From contig JBMFPL010000001.1 in assembly GCA_049969115.1 (NCBI GenBank), positions 1 through 29,736 of the forward strand: a stretch of 29,736 nucleotides of DNA. The letters run 5' to 3'. Positions 4,047 through 16,107 of this stretch are shown piece by piece (the first letter of the stretch is position 1; the number at the start of each line of letters is the position of its first letter). Position numbers and translations under genes: made by a program. The notes below the pieces were generated by a model that saw only the letters and a program-made list of their open reading frames with translations, made no database searches and was not told the origin of the DNA. Source of the stretch: Bryobacteraceae bacterium. Lineage in GTDB: Bacteria > Acidobacteriota > Terriglobia > Bryobacterales > Bryobacteraceae.

Positions 4047-5642
4047 TCAGGGCTCCGGGGCCAGCCAAGAAATTGCGCGGTTGACAGACAAGCGGAGGGA
4101 AGCGGGCAGGCGGCCTGTCCACTCGCGCAGGCGTTCGCGGTCGTCCGGTTCGAGGACGCGGCAGAAGCGAAGGCCCAGCGCGTAGACCGCGATGGCGGCG
4201 AGCACGGCGAGAGGGGGAGCGAGAGGGCCGCGGAGGCGCTCCACCAGCACGAGCGCAGCGGCGCCTGCACAAGCGGCGGCGAGCAGGATGCGGGCGAAGG
4301 GGCGCAGCGGGAAGCGAGCCCGGAATCCCTGGAGCGCAGCGAGCCAGGCAAGAAAGGCCGCGGCAGTCTGGGCAGCACTGTTGGCGACGGCCGCGCCCAT
4401 CGCGCCGTGGTGAGGAATCAGCAGAAAGTTGAGCAGAAGATTGAGAGCCGCCGCGCCAATCATGAGCTCGAGCAAGAGGCCCTGGCGGCTGGCGGCGACG
4501 AGAAAATCCTGGGCGGGAAACATGAGCGCCTTGGCGCTGGCGAAGACCGCGAGGAGAGCGAGCACCGGGATGGCGGGAAGGAAACGGGGGCCGTAGAGAA
4601 TGCGGACGATGGGATCGCTCATGGCGCCGACGCCGAAGCTGATGGGCAGGGCTGCGACGGCCATGAGCCGGAAGGCGGCGATGGTAAGCGCGGCGGCGGA
4701 TTCGGCGTCTTTTCCGATGCGAACCATCACCGAAGCGCTGACGGCGCTGACGAAGGCGCGGGGAAGCAGCAAGAGCCGCTGGGTGATATTGAAACCGAGT
4801 GAGTAGAAGGCCACCTGGCGGATGTCGCAGAAATGCTTCAGAAAGAGCATCTCGGAGCGGTCCCAGACGACGATGTCAAGCACTTGCAGGAGGCTCGCCT
4901 GGGCGCAGAACCTGCGCAGGACGGGCTTGAAGGCGGCGGCAGTCACGGCTCCGGCGCTGCACGCAAAGCCGGCGCCAGCGGCAAGCCAGCGACGAGCGTG
5001 GCGTGCGGCGTAATGGCGCCGCAGGAGCAGGTCGGCGGTGCGCTCGAACAGCAACGCGCCAGCCAGGCCAGGTAAATCCCAGCCCATTGCGAGCGCGAGT
5101 GCAACCCCGCTCAGGCCGAGGGCCGTGGAGGCGAGGGAGGCTTTGACGTTGCCGGCAAAATCCTCCACGGCAATATTCACGGCCGAGTACATGGCCATTT
5201 GCATGGCGGGCGCCAGGCTGATTACGGCCAGGGAAGCGTAAAGCCGGTGCCCGGGGGGAACCTTCCAGGCGACGACGAGCAACCCCAGCAGGACGACCAG
5301 GAAAGCCATAAGGGACTGCCAGCGCGACGTCCAACGCCAGATGGCGCGTGCCGTGAGCGGATCGCCGCGCCCCAAGTATTCGGCCATGTACTTGCGCGTG
5401 GCGAGCGGCACTCCGAGGGAAGCGAGGCGATTAGCGATGTTGCAAATGAAAAGGACGTAGTTGTAGTAGCCGAGCTTGGCTGGGCCCAGCAGGCGCGCGA
5501 TGGCGATGGAGCCGATCAAGGCCGAGACGAGGCCGGCCACGGTATCAAGGGCGGCGAGGACGGAATTACGTGCGATGACCCGGGCTGGCGAGGCAGTAAG
5601 GCTGGCGGGTGGGGAGTCTACATTCCGTTCCTGCTTGCTCAA
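4047..5642 (-). CDS. Wzx-type polysaccharide flippase (PST/MOP family)
   Basis: About 14 hydrophobic segments, with 'IARLLGPAKLGYYNY', 'GVATRKYMAEY'-like 'GVPLATRKYMAEY', 'QVAFYSLGF' and 'LNLLLNFLLIPHHGAMGAAVA'. The TTG start overlaps the upstream stop (TTGA, 5642-5639). Confidence 0.85.
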   Translation of the reverse strand: MSKQERNVDSPPASLTASPARVIARNSVLAALDTVAGLVSALIGSIAIARLLGPAKLGYYNYVLFICNIANRLASLGVPLATRKYMAEYLGRGDPLTARAIWRWTSRWQSLMAFLVVLLGLLVVAWKVPPGHRLYASLAVISLAPAMQMAMYSAVNIAVEDFAGNVKASLASTALGLSGVALALAMGWDLPGLAGALLFERTADLLLRRHYAARHARRWLAAGAGFACSAGAVTAAAFKPVLRRFCAQASLLQVLDIVVWDRSEMLFLKHFCDIRQVAFYSLGFNITQRLLLLPRAFVSAVSASVMVRIGKDAESAAALTIAAFRLMAVAALPISFGVGAMSDPIVRILYGPRFLPAIPVLALLAVFASAKALMFPAQDFLVAASRQGLLLELMIGAAALNLLLNFLLIPHHGAMGAAVANSAAQTAAAFLAWLAALQGFRARFPLRPFARILLAAACAGAAALVLVERLRGPLAPPLAVLAAIAVYALGLRFCRVLEPDDRERLREWTGRLPASLRLSVNRAISWLAPEP

Positions 5643-7033
5643 CGCTGTTCACCGTCAAGGCCTTGTGAACGCAGGCCGGTGAATACCACTACAGGCTGGA
5701 GTTTGCCGGCCGGCCCCGGTGGGATTCGGGGCACCGGCTCGACAACCACGGTAACTTCGCCAAGCACCTGTCTAAGTTCGGAGCGCAACAGAGAGGCGCT
5801 GGACGGGGATAGATCCCGGGACAGGACGAGGAGGAGCCGGACGCGTTGGGGAGATTCCTGGCGGACCTGGTACTGGAGAATCTCAGGGAATTCCTTGAGT
5901 AAGTGGACAAAGAACAGGCCGCTGACGGTCCGGCCTCCGGGAAGCCGGATCAGATCGGTGGTGCGCCCGAGGACCGGTTCCATCAGAGGCAGGCCGCGGC
6001 CGCAGGAACAGGGGCGGTGGAGGACGCGGCTAGCGTCGCCGATGGCGTAGCGGATGAAGACCGTACCCAGGTTGTGCAGGTCGGTGACCAGAACGTCACC
6101 GGGTTGGTCGGGAACAGCAGAGACAGTCTCGACGACGAGGTTTTCGATGTTGAGGTGCAGGCCTTCGTGTCGCTCGCACTCGGCGCCGATGGACATAAAC
6201 TCGCGGGAGCCGTAGGTCTCAAAAACAGGCGCGCAAAATATCCCGGCCAAGTAACTGCGGACGCCGGGCGCGAGCGGTTCCGCGGCAGTGATGACGGCGC
6301 GCAGCGAAGGCAAAGAAAGCCTGTGCTGTTCGAGATAGCGCGCGAAGCCCACGAGACTGGAGACGTAACCCACAAGGTAGCGTGGATGAAAGCGCCGCGC
6401 CTTGCGGAACGCGGCCTGCCAGAGAGCGTCATGCTGGAGCCAGGTGGGAACGAGGAGGCGGCGCTGGAGCACAGCGTGAGCCCGGTCTTTCAACCGGCTT
6501 GCGCGTGACTGCGAAGACAAGGGGGCGGCCCAGAGGTACATGGTGCGCTCGCCGGGCCGGCAGCCGGACCAGGAGTAAGCCCGGTGGGTGGCGGCGAGTC
6601 GCCAGTCGTAGCTTTCCCAGGTGCGGTAAAAACGGACGGGAACACCGCTCGAGCCTCCGGTAGCGTGGGGCATTCTCTCCAGCTCGAGGGAGACCGGGTA
6701 GAGTTGCTCGCGGAACTGGTTCACTTCTTCACGAGTAAGTACAGGGAGTTTGCGAAAATCGTCCCAGGTTCGGATGTCCTCGAGGCGTGCCCCGGCCCGG
6801 GCGTATTTGCGCTGGTAAAAGGGGACTGAGCGGAAAGCAACGGCGAGGAGCTTTTGCAGTTCTCCCCACTGGAATTCGAGGAGCCGGTCGGTGGGCCACC
6901 ACTGGGACTGTTCAAGAAAGGGACGGATGCGGTGGTAAGAGCGGCGGCGCGCCATGCTGCCTAACGGGAAGACGACGGCTTCCAGCAGGCGGCTATAGAG
7001 ACTCACTGGAACCCCATTGTAAGCTTGGTTCAT
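5639..7033 (-). CDS. Phenylacetate-CoA ligase-like (PaaK/CapK family) adenylate-forming enzyme
   Basis: P-loop 'HATGGSSGVP', 'PVFETYGSREF', 'ECERHEGLH', 'FIRYAIGD', 'CSCGRG' and 'GRTTD'. ATG at 7033 preferred; the ORF track starts at TTG 7045. Confidence 0.85.
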   Translation of the reverse strand: MNQAYNGVPVSLYSRLLEAVVFPLGSMARRRSYHRIRPFLEQSQWWPTDRLLEFQWGELQKLLAVAFRSVPFYQRKYARAGARLEDIRTWDDFRKLPVLTREEVNQFREQLYPVSLELERMPHATGGSSGVPVRFYRTWESYDWRLAATHRAYSWSGCRPGERTMYLWAAPLSSQSRASRLKDRAHAVLQRRLLVPTWLQHDALWQAAFRKARRFHPRYLVGYVSSLVGFARYLEQHRLSLPSLRAVITAAEPLAPGVRSYLAGIFCAPVFETYGSREFMSIGAECERHEGLHLNIENLVVETVSAVPDQPGDVLVTDLHNLGTVFIRYAIGDASRVLHRPCSCGRGLPLMEPVLGRTTDLIRLPGGRTVSGLFFVHLLKEFPEILQYQVRQESPQRVRLLLVLSRDLSPSSASLLRSELRQVLGEVTVVVEPVPRIPPGPAGKLQPVVVFTGLRSQGLDGEQR

Positions 7034-7069
7034 CGCGGTTTTCAAAACTTGTCGGGGCGTGAGGCGCCA

Positions 7070-8538: not shown

Positions 8539-10185
8539 ATGAAAGTACGCTGGTATGTGGCGCTGGCGGTTGTTCTTGGCTTCTACCTGCGCTTTTGTCT
8601 TTCTCAGACCAGAGTGGATCTGGGGCGGCAGGGCAAAAATGTAGATTTTTCCGGGGCCGAAAAAAGCAAGCCGTTCCGGAGCGGCGCAGCACTGCCAGCC
8701 TCTTGTGAGACGGGGGAGGCGTTTTTGCAAACGGGTGAAGGAACCGAGCAGACCCTGTACGTGTGCCCCACTCCGAACAATTGGGTCGCCGTTGGCAAGG
8801 AACTCCCGAGCGATGGGAAAGGACCGGGGAAGGCCCTTTTGGCCGGGGATAGCGGTTTGCAGTGGGCCGAGGCGGCGGGGGACGTTAGCGGGCGGTTCAC
8901 GGAGCTGAGCGTGCGCGCCTTGCGAGGGCGTCCTGTGAGCGACACGGCGCCCAGCGATCGGGAGGTTCTGCGGTGGAACGCTGCTCTCGGCCGGTGGGAA
9001 CCGGCGAGCGGGGCTGGTGATTACCAAGCGGGCGGGGGCGTACTCATTGCCGGGACCAGCATCGCCGTGGACGCGGCCACGGTACCCAACTATTATCTGG
9101 GGACGGGGAATCCCTCCGGGGACTGTGCACCGGGACGAGAGTACTATCTGGACACCGCGGGCGGGCAACTATACTATTGCGCGGCAGCGAACTCGTGGCA
9201 GGCGGTGAGCAAGCGGGAGCACAGCCACAGTTGGGGATCCCTGACCGGGAACCTGACAGACCAGACGGATCTGGTCGCGGCGTTGAACGGCAAAGCGGAC
9301 TTGTCTCACGGCCATGCCGTTGCGGGTGATCTCACGGGCACGGTGAACGCGGCTACGGTGGTGAAGATCCAGGGAAGGCCAGTTGCGGCGAGCGCTCCGA
9401 CGGACGGCGCGGCGCTGGTATGGAACGGCACGAGCCAGCAATGGGAGCCGGGCACTGTTTCGGGCTCCGGGGCGGGATTCGACGCGTTGGACACCCAGGT
9501 GCTGTGGTTACGCGAAGAATTTTGCAGCGGTGGGGGTTCGTCGGGGACCGTGGGGGCGCTCGGATGGGCATACACGACCGCGGGCACAGGAGATACTCTG
9601 ACATTGTCTTACGGAAGTTCTGCCCATCCCTGCGAGCTCAAAGGCATCGGCGTGACCTCGACCGCGGCCAACGATTACCGCTCGCTGTACCTGGCGAACC
9701 CCATGGGCGTGCTCCATTCGGGCGGCAGGACGGTTCCGTGGAAAGCGGTGTTCATTTTCATGCCCAAGGGGGCGGCAACCGAGTTGAGAATGCGCGTCGG
9801 GTTCGGGGGTTATGCGCCGGCGCTGGTTCCTACGGAGTTCATCGGTGTGAGGCTTGACCACGATGCCAACTGGGACGGGTCGTCGGCCACGAACCTGATT
9901 GCCTGTGTCTGCAACGATGCGCTGAAAACTGCCTGCACGGACATTGACACGGGAGTGGCCCTGCAGATTGACACTTACTACAAGCTGACCATGTGGAGCG
10001 ACACAGCCGGAGTGATCAGCATGTCCATCAATGACGGAACGCCGGTGACGTTCACTAACCCGTCCACCTTGCCAAATACGACGAAGACTCTCCAACCGCA
10101 TTTCATCATGGGCCGAACGGGCGGCACGGGGACGCGGTCGCTTTACCTAGATTTCTTTGCTGCCAGGAGGGCGGTGACGCGATGA
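8539..10185 (+). CDS. Secreted fibre-like protein with phage tail-fibre-style repeats and a C-terminal beta-rich head (hypothetical), 548 aa
   Basis: SD CAGGAGG at 8521-8527 and ATG at 8539. Signal-peptide-like N-terminus (MKVRWYVALAVVLGFYLRFCLS|Q). Two internally duplicated modules and two HxH motifs. The CDS is secure; the function is inferred. Confidence 0.75.
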   Translation: MKVRWYVALAVVLGFYLRFCLSQTRVDLGRQGKNVDFSGAEKSKPFRSGAALPASCETGEAFLQTGEGTEQTLYVCPTPNNWVAVGKELPSDGKGPGKALLAGDSGLQWAEAAGDVSGRFTELSVRALRGRPVSDTAPSDREVLRWNAALGRWEPASGAGDYQAGGGVLIAGTSIAVDAATVPNYYLGTGNPSGDCAPGREYYLDTAGGQLYYCAAANSWQAVSKREHSHSWGSLTGNLTDQTDLVAALNGKADLSHGHAVAGDLTGTVNAATVVKIQGRPVAASAPTDGAALVWNGTSQQWEPGTVSGSGAGFDALDTQVLWLREEFCSGGGSSGTVGALGWAYTTAGTGDTLTLSYGSSAHPCELKGIGVTSTAANDYRSLYLANPMGVLHSGGRTVPWKAVFIFMPKGAATELRMRVGFGGYAPALVPTEFIGVRLDHDANWDGSSATNLIACVCNDALKTACTDIDTGVALQIDTYYKLTMWSDTAGVISMSINDGTPVTFTNPSTLPNTTKTLQPHFIMGRTGGTGTRSLYLDFFAARRAVTR

Positions 10186-13100
10186 GCCGATGGTGGACGA
10201 TTTTCTGGCTGGCAGCGCTCGCACAGGGGCAGATGCTTCGCCTGCGGTACGGCGGGCCCCAGTCCTTGTATCACATTACGAGCATATCGGGCGGCTCCCC
10301 CGCAGTGCTCACGGTGAAGAATCATGTCACGTGGCAGCAGCAACACGATTTTGCGAACGGAGATGTGATTTACATCCAGTTCGTCGGGGGCTGTGCGGAA
10401 GCGAACGGGTTCCGGAAAGTAGTCAACTCGAATCAGCAAGGCGGCACGTTTAGCATTACTGATCTGGATGGAACCCCGATCGCCTGCTCCTATCCTTACC
10501 AGAGCGGCTTCGAATCGGGCGTGGTGGGCAAAGTGGGAGAGTACACGCTCCGATCCAGCAGGCCGCGCGTTTTCCTGCCCGGCTCGGGACCGTTGCTAGA
10601 GCGTTCGAAAGACCCCGATGGCAACGGGCCCCAGGTAGCCCCAGTGGTGACGGAGAACGATTACCCGTGGCAAGCGATGGTCGCCAAGTACGCGGCCTAC
10701 ATCACGGAGGGTTGTGACGGCCGCACGCCGTCGTTGTGTCCCAACGAAGAGGCGATGATGGACGCGGGCGACGCGTCGGGCAAGCTGGGCTACGGCGCAC
10801 ACGCGGCAGCTTACATCTGGTTTGCGGACAACTCCAAAACCGGTTACCTGACCCTGGCCCGTTACATGATCAACAACCTCGAGCGCGCGATGTTGCAGAA
10901 TACCTCCGGAGTGCGGCCGGGGTTTGGCTTTCCCTGTGACGTCACCACGAACTCCTGCGGTTGGGGCTCGGGATGCGACTGGCTGTCCATCGGCATGTGG
11001 CATTACAGCCTGGCCTATGACCTGATCAGAGACCAGCTTACCGATGCCGAGCGGCAGGCGTTCGCGAAGAAGATGCTGAACGGGTGGGGCGGAGAGTATG
11101 AGTGTTCGAACCAGCTCACCAGACAGAACGGCTCCGCAAACCTGACGTCCGGGTCGCACGCGGTGACCGGTTCCGGCTTCTCCGTGTACTCTCCGGGTGA
11201 CGGAGTCTATTTCAAGACCTCGATGGCCTGGGGAGCCTTGGGACGGTGGGGGCAGGTGGTCTCGGTCTTGAGCGACAGCGAGATGACGGTGAATTTCATT
11301 ATCGGGACGAGTAAGACCGCAGCTTCCGATGTGACGGCCAGCAATGTGGATCACTACAAGGTGATGCCCTGGAGCGAAACTCGGTGCGGAGCGGCATTTC
11401 TGGCGGGAGGCCAAGGCCTGGCATACAACGTGGGAGGGGCTGTGATCCAGCGAGCGATAACTTACCTGGCGAGCGCCATTGACGCCTCCCAGACGAGGGT
11501 CCAGGTCACGCATGCGGGAGGGTTCCCTGCCCCGCCATTCTACGTACTCGTCGAGAACGAGGTTCTCAATGTGACCGCGGTAAACGGCACCGAGTGGACA
11601 GTAGAGCGGGGCAAACTGTACACGAGCGCGGCACCCCATGCAACGGGCAAAGCGCTGGAATACAGCAGCCAGACCTCGGGCGGCTCGTTTGCACTGGCCG
11701 GGCCGCGGGCACTGGCCGGAGAGTGGTTCCACAACTTGACGGCCCAGAAGGCAGTCGGATATATGGTGACCGCCTTTGTCCTGGCGGGGGACGACCCGAG
11801 AGCTGCCGATTACGCGGAGCGGATCTGGAACTGGTACTACGACACGGTTTACGTAACCAACAAGGAGTACTGGTCGGGGCCCACCCAGGGGGGTCTGCAA
11901 GACCAAGGCTACCAATTAGGGCGGTGGCAGGCCAACCAGATCTGGGCAGGGCTGGTGGGGCGGAACGCGTTCGCGGGCAGCGGCATTGATTTGCTGGAGC
12001 AATACTTCTGGCGCGGGCTTACGACGATCCTTTTGTGGACGCCCCCTAACGGGACCGATCACTGGAGGAGAATGCCGGAAGAAGTAACGACGGGCAATCC
12101 CTACTCAACGAGGAACGTCGGGTGGGCGGCGGCCGCCGCGACCTTATGGCCATCCACGGAGGCCCAGTATGCGCAGTACTGGCTGCGCAACCTCAGCGGC
12201 CTGTTCCCGAACCCTGACGGCGCCCATTCGGTTCTCTATGCGGCGTACAGCCCGGCGAATTCGTCGCAGAGGGATTTCCGGTTGGAACTGCCGCCGTGGT
12301 CGTTCCACATGGATACGGATTTCAATGCGACGGCTTATTACGGGCTGCTGGTGAGCAGGCGTGATTGGAGCGAGACTTCCGGGATGCTGGTGGCGGGGGC
12401 CGGGTGGAACTGGCCGACGGACCACACGGTGGACCAAGGGATGTACTTGCCGGGCGGATACACGATTTTCAAGGGTAGCAAGCTGCTGTTCGGTTGGGAC
12501 AACGCGTATGGCATAGGAGGAGACCTGAACACGAGCCCATGGTTCAGACTTGGAGGCTCACTTAAGAGCATCACTCATCCGCCGTGGACGTCGCTGGCTT
12601 CGGGAGGACAGTACAACCAGATTGACCGCAGGCATGGCGACGGGGTGTACGTGTATGGTCGCGGGAACTTCACGGCATCGTGGCAAGCGGCTTCAAAAGT
12701 CTTGCGGCATCACCGGCATTTCTTGCACGTAAAGAGCGATCCGGAGTATGTGATCATATTCGACGACGCCGCCATGGGCGCGGCCTTGCAGGTAAAGACC
12801 AACCTCAATTACTTCCTGCGGGGAGATACGGCGCAGACGTTCTCGGCGTCATCCGACTATCGTGACATCGTGTTCAAGAAGCCGACCGAACCGGGAGCGA
12901 TGGTTTCGACGAAGCTGCTATTCCCGGACGGGTCGGAGCCAACGATTACTTATACGCAGACATCGTACAGTCACAAGTTGACGGTGGACTGGGGGAGCGT
13001 AGCCTCGGCCCAAATGATCACAATCCACCGTCTGGCTTCCGGGACGGCAGATGCGATGCCTACGGTCGCCCTACTGCAAGGGCTGGACGGGGGTTCGGTG

Positions 13101-14198
13101 GGTTTCGAGGCGCTGGACGGGGCGGATCCGCTGGCGGTGGTTTTCTCGCGCGATGGCATGGACCGGACCGAATGCGCTTTTCGCACCAGTTTCCCGCGGC
13201 GCGGGCGAATTCTGGTCACCGGGCTTGCACCGGGTGAATACCGAGTGTACCGTGATGGCCGGGAAATCAGCACAACTCCCGTGGCGGTAAGTGCGGGGGA
13301 TGGGACCCTTTATCTGGAAGGAGAGGCAGGCAACTACCTGGTGAGTGGAGTTCCGCCAGCCACTCTGGCCGTAGATCCGCTAAGCCTCAGGTTCGAATAC
13401 ACGGTGGGAGGAGAAGCGCCGGGGCCGCAGACATTGCGGGCGACGTGCACCGGCGGCACCTGCACCGTATCGGCGAGCGAGGATTGCTCGTGGCTGGCGG
13501 TGTCGCCGCAGAGCGGCTCGACTCCGGTGGACTTCCGGGTTAGCGTGGATCCACAAGGGTTGCCCAAGGGAAGCTATTCCTGTGCGGTGACGGTGAGCGC
13601 GATCGCCCTGAACAGTCCCCAGCAGGTGGACGTCACGTTGAATGTGGCCGAAGCAGGGGGAGGCACGGGCGGCGAACTATCGGTGGAACTGATCGGAGCT
13701 ACCAGCCGGAGGTTGCTGGTGCGCTACGGCGGACTGTATCTGAAGAGGCAGGATACATGCCGGTTAGAGGTGAGCGACAGTCCGGCCTGGGAGCGGATCC
13801 TGGAATCACTCGAGGATAGTGGAGGGCTGGCGCGGCGAGTGCTGGCGTTGGGCGCGGCAGGAACGTTGCAGCCGGCGACGGGCTACTATGTGCGCGCCGT
13901 TTGCGGGTCGAACGCCAGTGCAATCCCAGCGGCCACCAAGCCCGAGGCTACAGCGCAAGCCCGTCGGGTCGCTTTCCTCCTATCGCCGCCAGCGAAACTG
14001 GGGGCGCAATGGCTGCGCCTAGAATACGGTTACGGGCCTGAGCTGGGGCAATTGGTCACGCAGTCCTGCAATTCAGAGGGCTGCGCCATGGAAGTGGAAG
14101 TCGACTCCGACCAGCTCCTCTACTTCCGCTACGCGTACTTGGATGGCTCAGGACGGGAACTGGCGCACAGTGACGTGAAAGCGGTCGCCGTGCCGTGA
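10182..14198 (+). CDS. Large secreted mosaic protein: heparinase II/III-like (polysaccharide lyase-like) scaffold, inserted beta modules, BACON-like domain and C-terminal domains, 1338 aa
   Basis: SD CAGGAGG and ATGA overlap with the upstream stop. Signal-peptide-like N-terminus. 'SLAYDLIRDQLTDAERQAF', 'YGLLVSRRDW', 'DH..D.G..GYTIFKG' and 'HRHFLHVKSDPEYVIIFD' resemble heparinase II/III-type proteins. 'LAVDPLSLRF...SWLAVSPQSGSTP...VSVDPQGL..GSY...VTV' (13365-13646) is BACON-like. Confidence 0.7.
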   Translation: MSRWWTIFWLAALAQGQMLRLRYGGPQSLYHITSISGGSPAVLTVKNHVTWQQQHDFANGDVIYIQFVGGCAEANGFRKVVNSNQQGGTFSITDLDGTPIACSYPYQSGFESGVVGKVGEYTLRSSRPRVFLPGSGPLLERSKDPDGNGPQVAPVVTENDYPWQAMVAKYAAYITEGCDGRTPSLCPNEEAMMDAGDASGKLGYGAHAAAYIWFADNSKTGYLTLARYMINNLERAMLQNTSGVRPGFGFPCDVTTNSCGWGSGCDWLSIGMWHYSLAYDLIRDQLTDAERQAFAKKMLNGWGGEYECSNQLTRQNGSANLTSGSHAVTGSGFSVYSPGDGVYFKTSMAWGALGRWGQVVSVLSDSEMTVNFIIGTSKTAASDVTASNVDHYKVMPWSETRCGAAFLAGGQGLAYNVGGAVIQRAITYLASAIDASQTRVQVTHAGGFPAPPFYVLVENEVLNVTAVNGTEWTVERGKLYTSAAPHATGKALEYSSQTSGGSFALAGPRALAGEWFHNLTAQKAVGYMVTAFVLAGDDPRAADYAERIWNWYYDTVYVTNKEYWSGPTQGGLQDQGYQLGRWQANQIWAGLVGRNAFAGSGIDLLEQYFWRGLTTILLWTPPNGTDHWRRMPEEVTTGNPYSTRNVGWAAAAATLWPSTEAQYAQYWLRNLSGLFPNPDGAHSVLYAAYSPANSSQRDFRLELPPWSFHMDTDFNATAYYGLLVSRRDWSETSGMLVAGAGWNWPTDHTVDQGMYLPGGYTIFKGSKLLFGWDNAYGIGGDLNTSPWFRLGGSLKSITHPPWTSLASGGQYNQIDRRHGDGVYVYGRGNFTASWQAASKVLRHHRHFLHVKSDPEYVIIFDDAAMGAALQVKTNLNYFLRGDTAQTFSASSDYRDIVFKKPTEPGAMVSTKLLFPDGSEPTITYTQTSYSHKLTVDWGSVASAQMITIHRLASGTADAMPTVALLQGLDGGSVGFEALDGADPLAVVFSRDGMDRTECAFRTSFPRRGRILVTGLAPGEYRVYRDGREISTTPVAVSAGDGTLYLEGEAGNYLVSGVPPATLAVDPLSLRFEYTVGGEAPGPQTLRATCTGGTCTVSASEDCSWLAVSPQSGSTPVDFRVSVDPQGLPKGSYSCAVTVSAIALNSPQQVDVTLNVAEAGGGTGGELSVELIGATSRRLLVRYGGLYLKRQDTCRLEVSDSPAWERILESLEDSGGLARRVLALGAAGTLQPATGYYVRAVCGSNASAIPAATKPEATAQARRVAFLLSPPAKLGAQWLRLEYGYGPELGQLVTQSCNSEGCAMEVEVDSDQLLYFRYAYLDGSGRELAHSDVKAVAVP

Positions 14199-14277
14199 GC
14201 CCGGAGGCGGCTTGAGCGCGCGGGTAGCTCCGAGGTAGAACGCGGGACCTTGTTGCATGCCGGCTGGCGATGCCCTG

Positions 14278-14982
14278 CTATTTCTTGCCGCGGCGGACGC
14301 ACCCCGGGAACGTTTTCTCGAGCTTGTGAACCTTGGGCGCGGATTGGGTGAGAATATAGGGGTTGGCTGGGTTACGCCGGGCGAAGTCCTGGTGGTAGTC
14401 CTCGGCGGGATAGAAGCCCTTCAGAGGCTCCAGGCGGGTGACGATAGGGCGGGAGAAGACCCGCGCCTGCTGAAGCTGGCGGATGTAGGCCTCGGCGACA
14501 CGGCGCTCTTCTTCGCTGGCGTAGAAAATCGCCGACCGGTACTGCGGCCCGTTGTCAGGTCCCTGGCGGTTCAATTGGGTAGGATCGTGGGCGACAGCGA
14601 AGAAGATTTTCAGCAACTGGCCGTAGGAAATTTTGCGCGGGTCATAAGTGATGCGCACTGCCTCGGCGTGCCCGGTTGTACCCGTGCTGACCAGATCGTA
14701 GCGGGCTGTGCGCTCGTCTCCGCCGGCGTAGCCTGCGACAACATCGAGCACGCCTTCCACCTGCTCGAAAACTGCCTCGACGCACCAGAAACAACCGCCG
14801 GCCAGGACGGCGGTGCGTGACGAAGCGCGGACGGGGGCCGGCAAGTCTTCCGACGGGTCAGGGAAAGCGGCGCTGTTGGCGCCGGTTTTGACCGGTTGCG
14901 TGACGGGTGAATTGGTCGCATTCATGGCAAGGACACCGAGCACCAGAAGCGCCGCAGGAAGGAAGTCGGCAGCTTTTTTCAT
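14278..14982 (-). CDS. msrA: Peptide-methionine (S)-S-oxide reductase with N-terminal export signal
   Basis: '[11 protein letters not shown]', 'GYAGG', '[13 protein letters not shown]', '[22 protein letters not shown]' and 'FYPAEDYHQ'. Hydrophobic N-terminus followed by a Pro/Thr linker. Confidence 0.95.
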
Positions 14983-15018
14983 CCACCAGATGAGATGAGC
15001 GAGGGGGAGGTCCGGTCG

Positions 15019-16107
15019 CTAACGAGGGGGCGCGGAGCTGGGCGGGACCACATCGTCCACCGGAGGTTCGGGTTCTTCCTCCTCCGGGTTGTCGTCCGGG
15101 CGAGAAAACACGATCTCCCAGGCGGAGATGCCGTGCAAGTAAAAGCGCGCCACGTGGCTGGCCAGACTGTCTGTCTCACCTTCCAGCAGACCGACGACCT
15201 GGGGATAGTAACCAGGTGGACGATCCATGATTTTCGTGGGCGTAGACCAGCCCAGGGGATCGGAAACGTCCGGGTTAAAGCTCACATAGACACCGGCGGC
15301 AGGCCAACCGGGTTCGCAGCAGGCATGGTTGAGCAGGACCACATAGCTTTCCAGATACGAGTTCCAGTGAATGGAAGGTCCCCAAAAAGCGTTGGCATGG
15401 GCTTGCTGCCAAGGGGTGGCGACGGGGAAGATCGGGGTGAGCCGGCCACCCAAGCCCGGTTCGGACCAGTCGCCGCGGAAGTATTTCCAGACGGCCCCGA
15501 CGGGATTCTTGCGGTCCTCGAACGCCATGCGCGCCAGACCGATACCCTGCGAAGAGGCCTCGCCGCCATAGTTGCCGAACAGGAAATAGAAAAACTGACG
15601 GTCGCGGTCCACAATCACGGAGAAATCCCCGTGGCCGCCGGCGAAAAAGCCGTTGCGCGCCGAGCAATCGGGCGGGTCGGGCGAGGTGAGAATGAGGCCC
15701 AAATCCTGGAAGCTGTGGCCGCCGTCGTAGGAGACCAGGGCGCCGATGTGGGGCATGACGAGGTCGGTACCGGTGCAGACACGGGGCTGCTCGTAATGGT
15801 ACCAGGCATACACGGTCCCGTCATCGTCCACCCAGGCGGCCTCGATCCACATGGGAAAGTGTAGGTCAGAATCCACGCGGACCGCCTCCGAACTGACGGG
15901 CGCGAACTGGTTCACGCCCCAGCTCAGCACCGGAGCGCCTGCGGAGTTGAAGACGTGAAACTGACCGTCCCGCCAGAAGACCGGGCTATTGGAATCCACC
16001 TGGGCGGGCATCCAGACGGAAGGCGCTGGGCGGAGGCGGGCGGACTGCCCCAGGACGGTCAAAGAAAACGCCAGCACCGACAGCGATTGGATCCAAAGCC
16101 GCTTCAC
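15019..16107 (-). CDS. Secreted hypothetical protein, possible five-bladed beta-propeller glycosidase-like fold
   Basis: SD GAGGGGAG, signal peptide (..LTVLG|Q) and repeated aromatic beta strands ('WIEAAW', 'VYAWYHYE', 'GDFSVIVD', 'FWGPSIHWN'). Acidic/Pro-rich tail. The fold is inferred. Confidence 0.6.
   Translation of the reverse strand: MKRLWIQSLSVLAFSLTVLGQSARLRPAPSVWMPAQVDSNSPVFWRDGQFHVFNSAGAPVLSWGVNQFAPVSSEAVRVDSDLHFPMWIEAAWVDDDGTVYAWYHYEQPRVCTGTDLVMPHIGALVSYDGGHSFQDLGLILTSPDPPDCSARNGFFAGGHGDFSVIVDRDRQFFYFLFGNYGGEASSQGIGLARMAFEDRKNPVGAVWKYFRGDWSEPGLGGRLTPIFPVATPWQQAHANAFWGPSIHWNSYLESYVVLLNHACCEPGWPAAGVYVSFNPDVSDPLGWSTPTKIMDRPPGYYPQVVGLLEGETDSLASHVARFYLHGISAWEIVFSRPDDNPEEEEPEPPVDDVVPPSSAPPR

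Follow-up and report, generated by a model that had tools for sequence, protein, structure and literature searches.

What does a bacterium do with a protein in which lyase-like parts alternate with modules resembling those of phage tails, and whose gene stands beside genes for exopolysaccharide (EPS) synthesis? The question is raised by a stretch of 29,736 nucleotides (nt) from a Bryobacteraceae bacterium (contig JBMFPL010000001.1, positions 1 to 29,736; hereafter the window) and by one protein encoded on it, P0001, which an earlier note on this DNA had described as a heparinase II/III-like scaffold interrupted by three virion-like beta modules. Our analysis indicates that P0001 most likely belongs, within the toroid-plus-sandwich superfamily of polysaccharide lyases, to a large group that is sister to heparinase II (PL21) and carries no annotation. 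On balance, it is probably an exported lyase of a separate heparinase-II-like family, which would trim or release the EPS that its own locus produces; the nested barrels would shape the cleft or hold the polymer or a partner.

P0001 is the 1338-amino-acid (aa) product of a single open reading frame (ORF) at 10182..14198 of the forward (+) strand, on which all of its features lie. An AlphaFold2 model of aa 18-1160, built from a 57-sequence alignment, reached a mean pLDDT of 94.1 and a pTM of 0.89. Its elements are, in order, a beta domain (aa 18-122, module M1), helices (137-302), a second beta module (310-397, M2), a short helix (404-408), a third beta module (422-497, M3), helices (507-692), a beta-sandwich (717-957) and two further beta domains (962-1057, HepII_C; 1061-1157, BACON). 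The alternation of helical and beta segments described in the earlier note is exactly the secondary structure of the model. The two helical stretches correspond to the halves of a toroid. The first half (10590..11087) includes the 'AYDLIRDQL..ER..F' helix, which aligns weakly to heparinase II chain positions 118-153; the second (11700..12257) carries Asn518, Tyr577 and Arg581, and the beta-sandwich (12330..13052) carries Asp747-His748, Arg845, His849, Asp861 and His949. The HepII_C-type C-terminal beta domain (13065..13352; PF18675, E 1e-5 to 5e-6) aligns with the end of heparinase II.

The model and a Foldseek search of the PDB recovered the toroid-plus-sandwich fold that had been proposed. 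The best Foldseek match was heparinase II (2fut, E 3.6e-20, TM-score 0.55 on the target, 625 columns), followed by Atu3025 (PL15), Dp0100 (PL39), exoHep and heparinase III (PL12), and further down by Alg17c/PL17 alginate lyases, PL33, human dermatan-sulfate epimerase and PL35 GAGases. With the family profile, the sandwich and the C-terminal domain matched heparinase II (E 1.3e-19, ~15% identity), and the toroid contributed only a non-significant 36-residue stretch. Judged from the modelled fold and the profile, heparinase II is the nearest solved relative of P0001. A protein-language search also placed P0001 beside clusters of the Hepar_II_III_C/DUF4962 type (score 0.80-0.85), which we take as a lead only.

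Conservation was counted over 57 relatives, with identity down to 23%. Asn518 (nt 11733-11735) and Tyr577 (nt 11910-11912) are each conserved in 56/57 sequences, Arg581 (nt 11922-11924) in 52/57, and the pair Asp747-His748 (nt 12420-12425) in 55/56 and 54/56, respectively; Arg845, His849, Asp861 and His949 also belong to the polar residues that vary least in the catalytic part. In the profile alignment, the pair falls on positions 380-381 of the 2fuq chain, which are Asn405-His406 when counted from mature residue 26, so that His748 is aligned to the catalytic His406 of heparinase II, an enzyme whose key catalytic residues are His202, Tyr257 and His406 (PMC7904915). By conservation and spacing, Tyr577 is the candidate counterpart of Tyr257. 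The conserved Tyr/His pair expected from the earlier note is present, as Tyr577 and His748. Asn518 stands at the start of a long toroid helix of the model, 59 residues before Tyr577, which is itself 171 residues before His748. Known toroid lyases show distances of 53-57 residues from Asn to Tyr and of 130-166 from Tyr to His, with Tyr294/His424 and the neutraliser Asn240 in heparinase III, Tyr258/His413 and Asn201 in Alg17c, Tyr239/His405 and Asn186 in Dp0100, and Tyr390/His555 and Asn336 in exoHep (PMC12088678, table). As judged from the sequences, P0001 carries a candidate Asn/Tyr/His set of the PL12/PL17 kind (Asn518, Tyr577 and His748, together with Arg581). The roles proposed for Asn518 and Tyr577 draw on conservation, spacing and the whole-fold match, since the toroid cannot be aligned to those of solved lyases.

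M2 and M3 share a single connection between the toroid halves, which runs in the model from a helix ending at aa 299 to the helix starting at Asn518. As this loop leads straight into the Asn518 helix, M2 and M3 may be located at the rim of the substrate cleft. The view that the modules are inserted into toroid loops therefore holds for M2 and M3, in one shared loop, and not for M1, which precedes the toroid. The part of the loop holding M2 (11103..11387) is delimited by Cys308 (nt 11103-11105) and Cys402 (nt 11385-11387), which do bracket the second module in the translation, as had been described. Cys308 is invariant in 54/54 sequences and Cys402 in 56/56, and relatives free of any insert keep both equivalents, ~15 residues apart. 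The two residues would form a disulfide and, as the pair is kept without an insert, the loop was probably closed in this way before it received a domain.

The distance between the toroid halves was compared in 69 relatives with a complete core. Loops fell into classes of 42 aa (no insert), ~125 aa (M2 only), ~200 aa (M2 and M3) and 283-306 aa, the last having an additional FCCH-like module nested in M2; in P0074 and P0084, an FCCH-like module is apparently found inside M2, that is, a domain in a domain in the toroid. Of the shorter forms, P0109 carries M2 alone and P0139 is free of inserts. Among these relatives M2 is present in 62, M3 in 50 and M1 in 40, and such a nearly family-wide occurrence argues against a recent insertion of M2. 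In a quickly built maximum-likelihood tree of the core, the presence of M3 required two changes versus 16.9 with shuffled labels, and the proteins lacking M3 formed one clade of 18; as a tree without an outgroup, it does not give the direction of gain or loss.

The relationship of the three modules to virion proteins was studied module by module. M1 (aa 18-122; 10233..10547) is an N-terminal FCCH-like beta-barrel with strands defined by the model and a conserved pair Cys71/Cys102. Its family profile matched the E1 FCCH domain (PDB 2lzj, E 1.5e-6), a phage structural protein (7e-5) and the tail protein gp15 (1.7e-4), and the major tail protein family phrog_584 was matched by 32/51 family copies (best E 6.5e-10); Pfam E1_FCCH scored below its gathering score on M1, which also weakly matched 4hiz. 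FCCH domains are known as outward decorations on siphophage tail tubes (PMC13576161). M2 (aa 310-397; 11109..11372) is a small closed beta-barrel, modelled separately with AlphaFold2 at a pLDDT of 92.6. Its fold matches were all weak (best E 1.5e-3) and comprised the phi92 and K1F endosialidases, the Chi tail tip and tail tubes, as well as tailspike N-domains and the crown barrel of F1-ATPase; its profile matched the N-terminus of gp20, a distal tail protein (E 1.2e-4), and, weakly, the F2-pyocin side fibre. The M2 of P0001 itself gave no PHROG match, and the link comes from copies in relatives, 13/55 of which matched the tail-fibre PHROG 1980 (best E 1.8e-12), others matching five more tail families. 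M3 (aa 422-497; 11445..11672), a beta module of the tail-fibre/gpJ type, follows M2 in the same loop after the short helix. It matched the tail fibre family phrog_38058 (E 1e-9) and phrog_1101 (E 9e-6), and its profile matched two copies in the minor tail protein 8vjh_A (E 9e-10), a protein of phage Chi (PMC11945409), and the tip attachment protein J (8rk3, 4.6e-3).

Virion-protein profile matches were therefore found for each of the three modules, for M2 through its relatives. None of the three observations listed in the earlier note as contrary to its proposal (no toroid-plus-sandwich fold, no His/Tyr pair, inserts lacking such matches) was made. The modules are not specific to virions, since M3 occurs in cellular proteins, and barrels of the M1 and M2 type in E1 enzymes and F1-ATPase. 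M3 arrays of up to 21 copies were found in cellular proteins of large size that also contain Kelch, TadG-like or VWA parts; P0090, P0104, P0127 and P0177, proteins of 1911-4486 aa, contain 9-21 tandem M3-type copies. The M3-type module, for which Pfam has no model, looks like an undescribed and widespread extracellular repeat domain. A viral fold search in BFVD gave matches of 70-84 residues to phage tail fibre fragments (root-mean-square deviation 1.3-1.9 Å, 22-30% identity), the module matched being unspecified, and also returned phage BACON proteins. When M2 and M3 were compared by tblastn with 50,697 phage records, a single match was recovered, to M3 only, in a 595-kb uncultured phage, which indicates a phage link at the level of profiles and not a recent transfer.

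The surroundings of the gene connect P0001 to polymer synthesis. Near it in the window are genes for a glycosyltransferase, a GFO/epimerase fusion, Wzy, a Wzx-type flippase, a CapK-like enzyme and a GT4 glycosyltransferase. P0001 and the upstream gene P0041 form a two-gene unit that adjoins these EPS genes and is transcribed opposite to them, and a convergent msrA gene lies 3' of P0001. The loci of close relatives have the same gene order, and distant family members are found among genes for glycosyltransferases, Wzy, Wzx, pyruvyl transferase, acyltransferase or PEP-CTERM proteins. Both in the window and in relatives, the protein is thus encoded in a polymer biosynthesis locus and is predicted to be exported. 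A prophage or phage remnant was ruled out, no phage genes being present around P0001 and housekeeping genes flanking the locus.

P0041 (8539..10185, +, from the Met at 8539), whose gene is co-transcribed and translationally coupled with that of P0001, is an exported, fibre-like modular protein of 548 aa, conserved beside the relatives of P0001. It contains internally repeated modules with cysteines and weakly matches tail-protein PHROGs (phrog_25379, 7e-5). It is 51% identical to the product of the gene upstream of the P0001 relative in locus L001, and a more distant counterpart has a Gly_rich_2 domain. Upstream of the P0001 relatives, a P0041 relative was found in loci L001, L002, L004, L011-L013 and L018 and in part in L005, but in neither L016 nor L019.

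Two observations concern the chemistry of the polymer and its loci. The CapK-like protein encoded at 5639-7045 (-) is an adenylating enzyme, and the loci of relatives add 'sugar-transfer associated' ATP-grasp genes, one of which lies between the GT4 gene and the gene pair and is absent from the window. Together, the CapK-like enzyme and these ATP-grasp genes hint at acidic sugars amidated with amino acids in the EPS polymer. In addition, two family paralogues are adjacent in a metagenomic EPS locus (L016, 7001-9838 and 10521-14663), the first overlapping the end of the Wzy gene, and two paralogues stand in tandem in another locus (L006).

Because the Asn518/Tyr577/His748 set resembles that of PL12 and PL17, beta-elimination is the most likely chemistry. 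Cleavage would take place at a uronic-acid residue, whose carboxylate would be neutralised by Asn518, with Tyr577 and His748 acting as base and acid. Since the gene and its relatives are found in Wzx/Wzy loci, the most likely substrate is the exopolysaccharide that the cell itself makes; the enzyme would trim it, release it or clear it, in the way of other depolymerases encoded in matrix loci. The genomic context speaks for a substrate other than heparin or heparan sulfate. M2 and M3 may extend or gate the cleft, or hold the polymer or a fibre-like partner, and M1, BACON and the C-terminal domains may be further binding or anchoring parts.

Several results weigh against such a lyase. The His202 of heparinase II has no conserved counterpart in the family, His517 being replaced in several close relatives. 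PF07940 and DUF4962 matched neither P0001 nor ten distant relatives, only HepII_C being found. The toroid gave no sequence alignment to any solved lyase with the family profile, with an M3-less profile or with hhalign. No gene of the window has been shown to make uronic acid. Finally, the fold also houses an epimerase, human DS-epimerase 1 (6hzn, E 6.9e-11, Foldseek). Other searches point the same way as to sequence: P0001 used as a single sequence found no match in the PDB, and Pfam recognised on P0001 no more than a HepII_C of borderline score (aa 1009-1052) and, under threshold, BACON_2. A profile made from relatives classed as lacking M3 by module hidden Markov models again matched only the C-terminal half against the PDB; these M3-less relatives proved to have M2 after all, in a divergent form. 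The family profile compared by hhalign with a PL35-like protein of the same genome gave a probability of 1.6%, and NCBIfam HepB scored 15.7 bits on P0001 versus a cut-off of 600, its search of the genome finding only the HepII_C of P0001 itself. P0001 would work like a lyase of the PL12/PL17/PL21 type but cannot be filed as PL21, given that its alignment is confined to the C-terminal half, that the position of His202 is not conserved and that the Pfam lyase models are silent.

The alternative which survives best is a depolymerase directed against foreign capsules or mat polysaccharides, for food or competition, with the fibre-like partner for targeting and a position in the locus that is incidental or self-protective. 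Its appeal lies in the phage-type modules, the BACON domain and the fibre-like partner, which resemble the equipment of phage depolymerases, in a patchy distribution (4/61 related genomes) and in the origin of the DNA from hot-spring metagenomes. We nevertheless consider it unlikely: synteny with Wzy, Wzx and glycosyltransferase genes extends from 66% down to ~25% identity over at least six separate loci, as expected for enzymes acting on the product of their own locus, and no uptake or catabolic genes are found nearby.

The resemblance to phage equipment also allows a rather unlikely reading of the coupled genes, in which P0041 and P0001 would be a cellular 'fibre plus depolymerase' device made from phage receptor-binding parts. 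The partner would carry or aim the lyase, M1 (perhaps with M2 and M3) would serve for docking, and the device, used on the cell surface, would cut or remodel polysaccharide. The N-terminal domains by which phage fibres and spikes dock on tails offer a precedent for docking modules of this kind. The fibre-like partner accompanies M1-bearing relatives in three separate lineages and is absent from two loci lacking M1, with one exception, a hint from a small sample.

It appears improbable that P0001 is a polymer-level uronate C5-epimerase, whose Tyr/His pair would remove the C5 proton from a uronic acid of the nascent EPS and then put it back, turning that residue into its epimer. Dermatan-sulfate epimerase, which performs uronate epimerisation on a toroid-plus-sandwich fold, is the model for such an activity; its presence among the fold matches, the biosynthetic locus and the absence of a conserved toroid His, by which the site differs from that of heparinase II, would all agree with it. 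The closer fold matches are all lyases, however, heparinase II is the sole significant sequence link, and an Asn/Tyr/His set without a toroid His is typical of active PL12, PL17 and PL39 lyases. A catalytically dead scaffold that binds polysaccharide or organises the surface is highly improbable: the absence of Pfam lyase matches, the missing counterpart of His202, a residue other than His aligned by the profile to His408 of the heparinase II zinc site and the many binding-type modules would suit it, but 52-56 of 56-57 relatives, with identity down to 23%, retain Asn518, Tyr577, Arg581 and the pair Asp747-His748, which is hard to explain without catalysis.

An exported lyase acting on the EPS of its own locus may be compared with several known systems. 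Heparinase II of Pedobacter heparinus (PL21; 2FUQ/2FUT/3E7J) is the best fold and profile match and has the same layout of toroid, sandwich and C-terminal beta domain. P0001 differs from it by an identity of only ~15%, an unalignable toroid, the lack of a His202 counterpart and of any PF07940/DUF4962 match, and by the possession of ~190 aa of nested beta modules in one loop, a barrel at the N-terminus, a BACON domain and a tail of 174 aa; it is, moreover, encoded in an EPS synthesis locus and not in a glycosaminoglycan utilisation locus. Heparinase III (PL12), Alg17c (PL17) and Dp0100 (PL39) share the fold, a neutralising Asn with which a helix begins, a Tyr ~55 residues further on and a sandwich His, but no detectable sequence similarity, and they have no nested modules before the Asn helix. 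The longest structural alignments were obtained with Atu3025/exoHep (PL15; ~1070-1130 columns, TM-score 0.52-0.61 on the target), which also have an N-terminal beta domain in addition to toroid and sandwich; in contrast to P0001, they use a His/Tyr/His triad, lack toroid inserts and are exolytic catabolic enzymes. A viral protein of 809 aa, A0A5Q2W4E8 in BFVD, was matched over the whole lyase fold (E 2.8e-12, 765 columns), which indicates that toroid-type lyases of this kind also exist in viruses.

Endosialidases (phi92 4HIZ, K1F 1V0E/NF 3GVJ) and tailspike depolymerases gave the best fold matches to M2 (E 1.5e-3, 26% identity over 94 columns). These E-values are weak, and the endosialidases have a catalytic fold of another type, a beta-propeller hydrolase. 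Within the endosialidase catalytic domain lies a nested barrel that binds polymer, which would be a precedent for a lectin-like barrel in a depolymerase. AlgL and PslG are depolymerases encoded in matrix loci. RbmB of Vibrio cholerae is likewise described as a degrading enzyme encoded in the matrix cluster of its own polymer (PMC11637428). P0001 would share with RbmB-type depolymerases an enzyme role in the locus of the polymer; its fold is unrelated to theirs, and their architecture is simpler.

New for this kind of enzyme are the nesting of barrels in one loop, predicted to be closed by a disulfide, the large extent of a family that has no annotation, and the association of that family with EPS loci. 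If P0001 is active, the family, with hundreds of clusters at 50% identity, would represent a large branch of toroid-type lyases which Pfam models only at the HepII_C tail and which is linked to exopolysaccharide loci, not to catabolic loci. In CAZy, it could turn out to be a new family or a deep subfamily of PL21, and it could open a way to the EPS of Acidobacteriota, which has hardly been studied. The series of loops, from 42 to ~300 residues with whole barrel modules of the phage-tail type, constitutes a natural domain-insertion series beside a presumed catalytic helix, in which the effect of the modules on processivity, specificity or docking can be directly tested. The hot-spring origin suggests that the enzymes are thermostable.

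The gene itself has the features expected of a genuine coding sequence. An AGGAGG is present 11 nt 5' of the ATG, and this start codon shares bases with the stop codon of the gene upstream (ATGA, a 4-nt overlap also found in the loci of close relatives). About 17 full-length relatives have the same length and 50-66% identity, and an exhaustive search with aa 1-1100 gave 573 representative clusters at E<=1e-3, of which 70 reached E<=1e-30; these homologues and the mean pLDDT rule out a chance ORF. The named close relatives all come from metagenome-assembled Bryobacteraceae genomes, and DNA of the window was detected in hot-spring metagenome runs. The core gene was found in 4 of 61 related genomes searched, the window's own included, and is single-copy in the latter; such a distribution designates it as an accessory trait, as EPS loci generally are.

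All the strings quoted in the earlier note translate at the positions given for them: the 'SLAYDLIRDQLTDAERQAF' helix is aa 276-294 (nt 11007-11063), the first module motif starts at aa 32 (nt 10275), the second covers aa 317-370 (nt 11130-11291) and the third aa 429-489 (nt 11466-11648). The span of 10275-13360 assigned to the protein was right as the end of HepII_C; the gene continues for ~280 more codons to 14198, and the domain list, sound as far as it went, had left out the BACON domain and the 174-aa C-terminal region.

At the N-terminus, aa 1-17 (10232 being the last nucleotide of 10182..10232) read as a probable Sec signal peptide, with a basic N-end, a hydrophobic core and Ala-x-Ala, and without a lipobox Cys. 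Sixteen of the 18 Cys of P0001 stand in conserved pairs (eight pairs in the alignment of relatives), and with the signal peptide these pairs suggest that P0001 is probably exported via Sec. At the other end, the BACON-type domain (aa 1061-1157; 13362..13652) matched PF19190 BACON_2 at E 2e-4, under the gathering score, and recovered many BACON proteins in the homologue search. The C-terminal region (aa 1165-1338; 13674..14195) has two conserved Cys pairs and is common to many relatives; it is possibly fn3-like (weak fn3 match, E 0.05).

Downstream of P0001, long ORFs at 14257-14820 and 14995-15864 (+) look spurious, and 14278-14982 (-) encodes a clear methionine sulfoxide reductase (PMSR, E 1e-61). 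Elsewhere in the same genome (G000), three canonical Hepar_II_III_C proteins are encoded on contigs C476, C159 and C254 (loci L008-L010), and the one in L010 (388-2193) matches the PL35 GAGase II (8khv) with an E-value of 3.6e-106.

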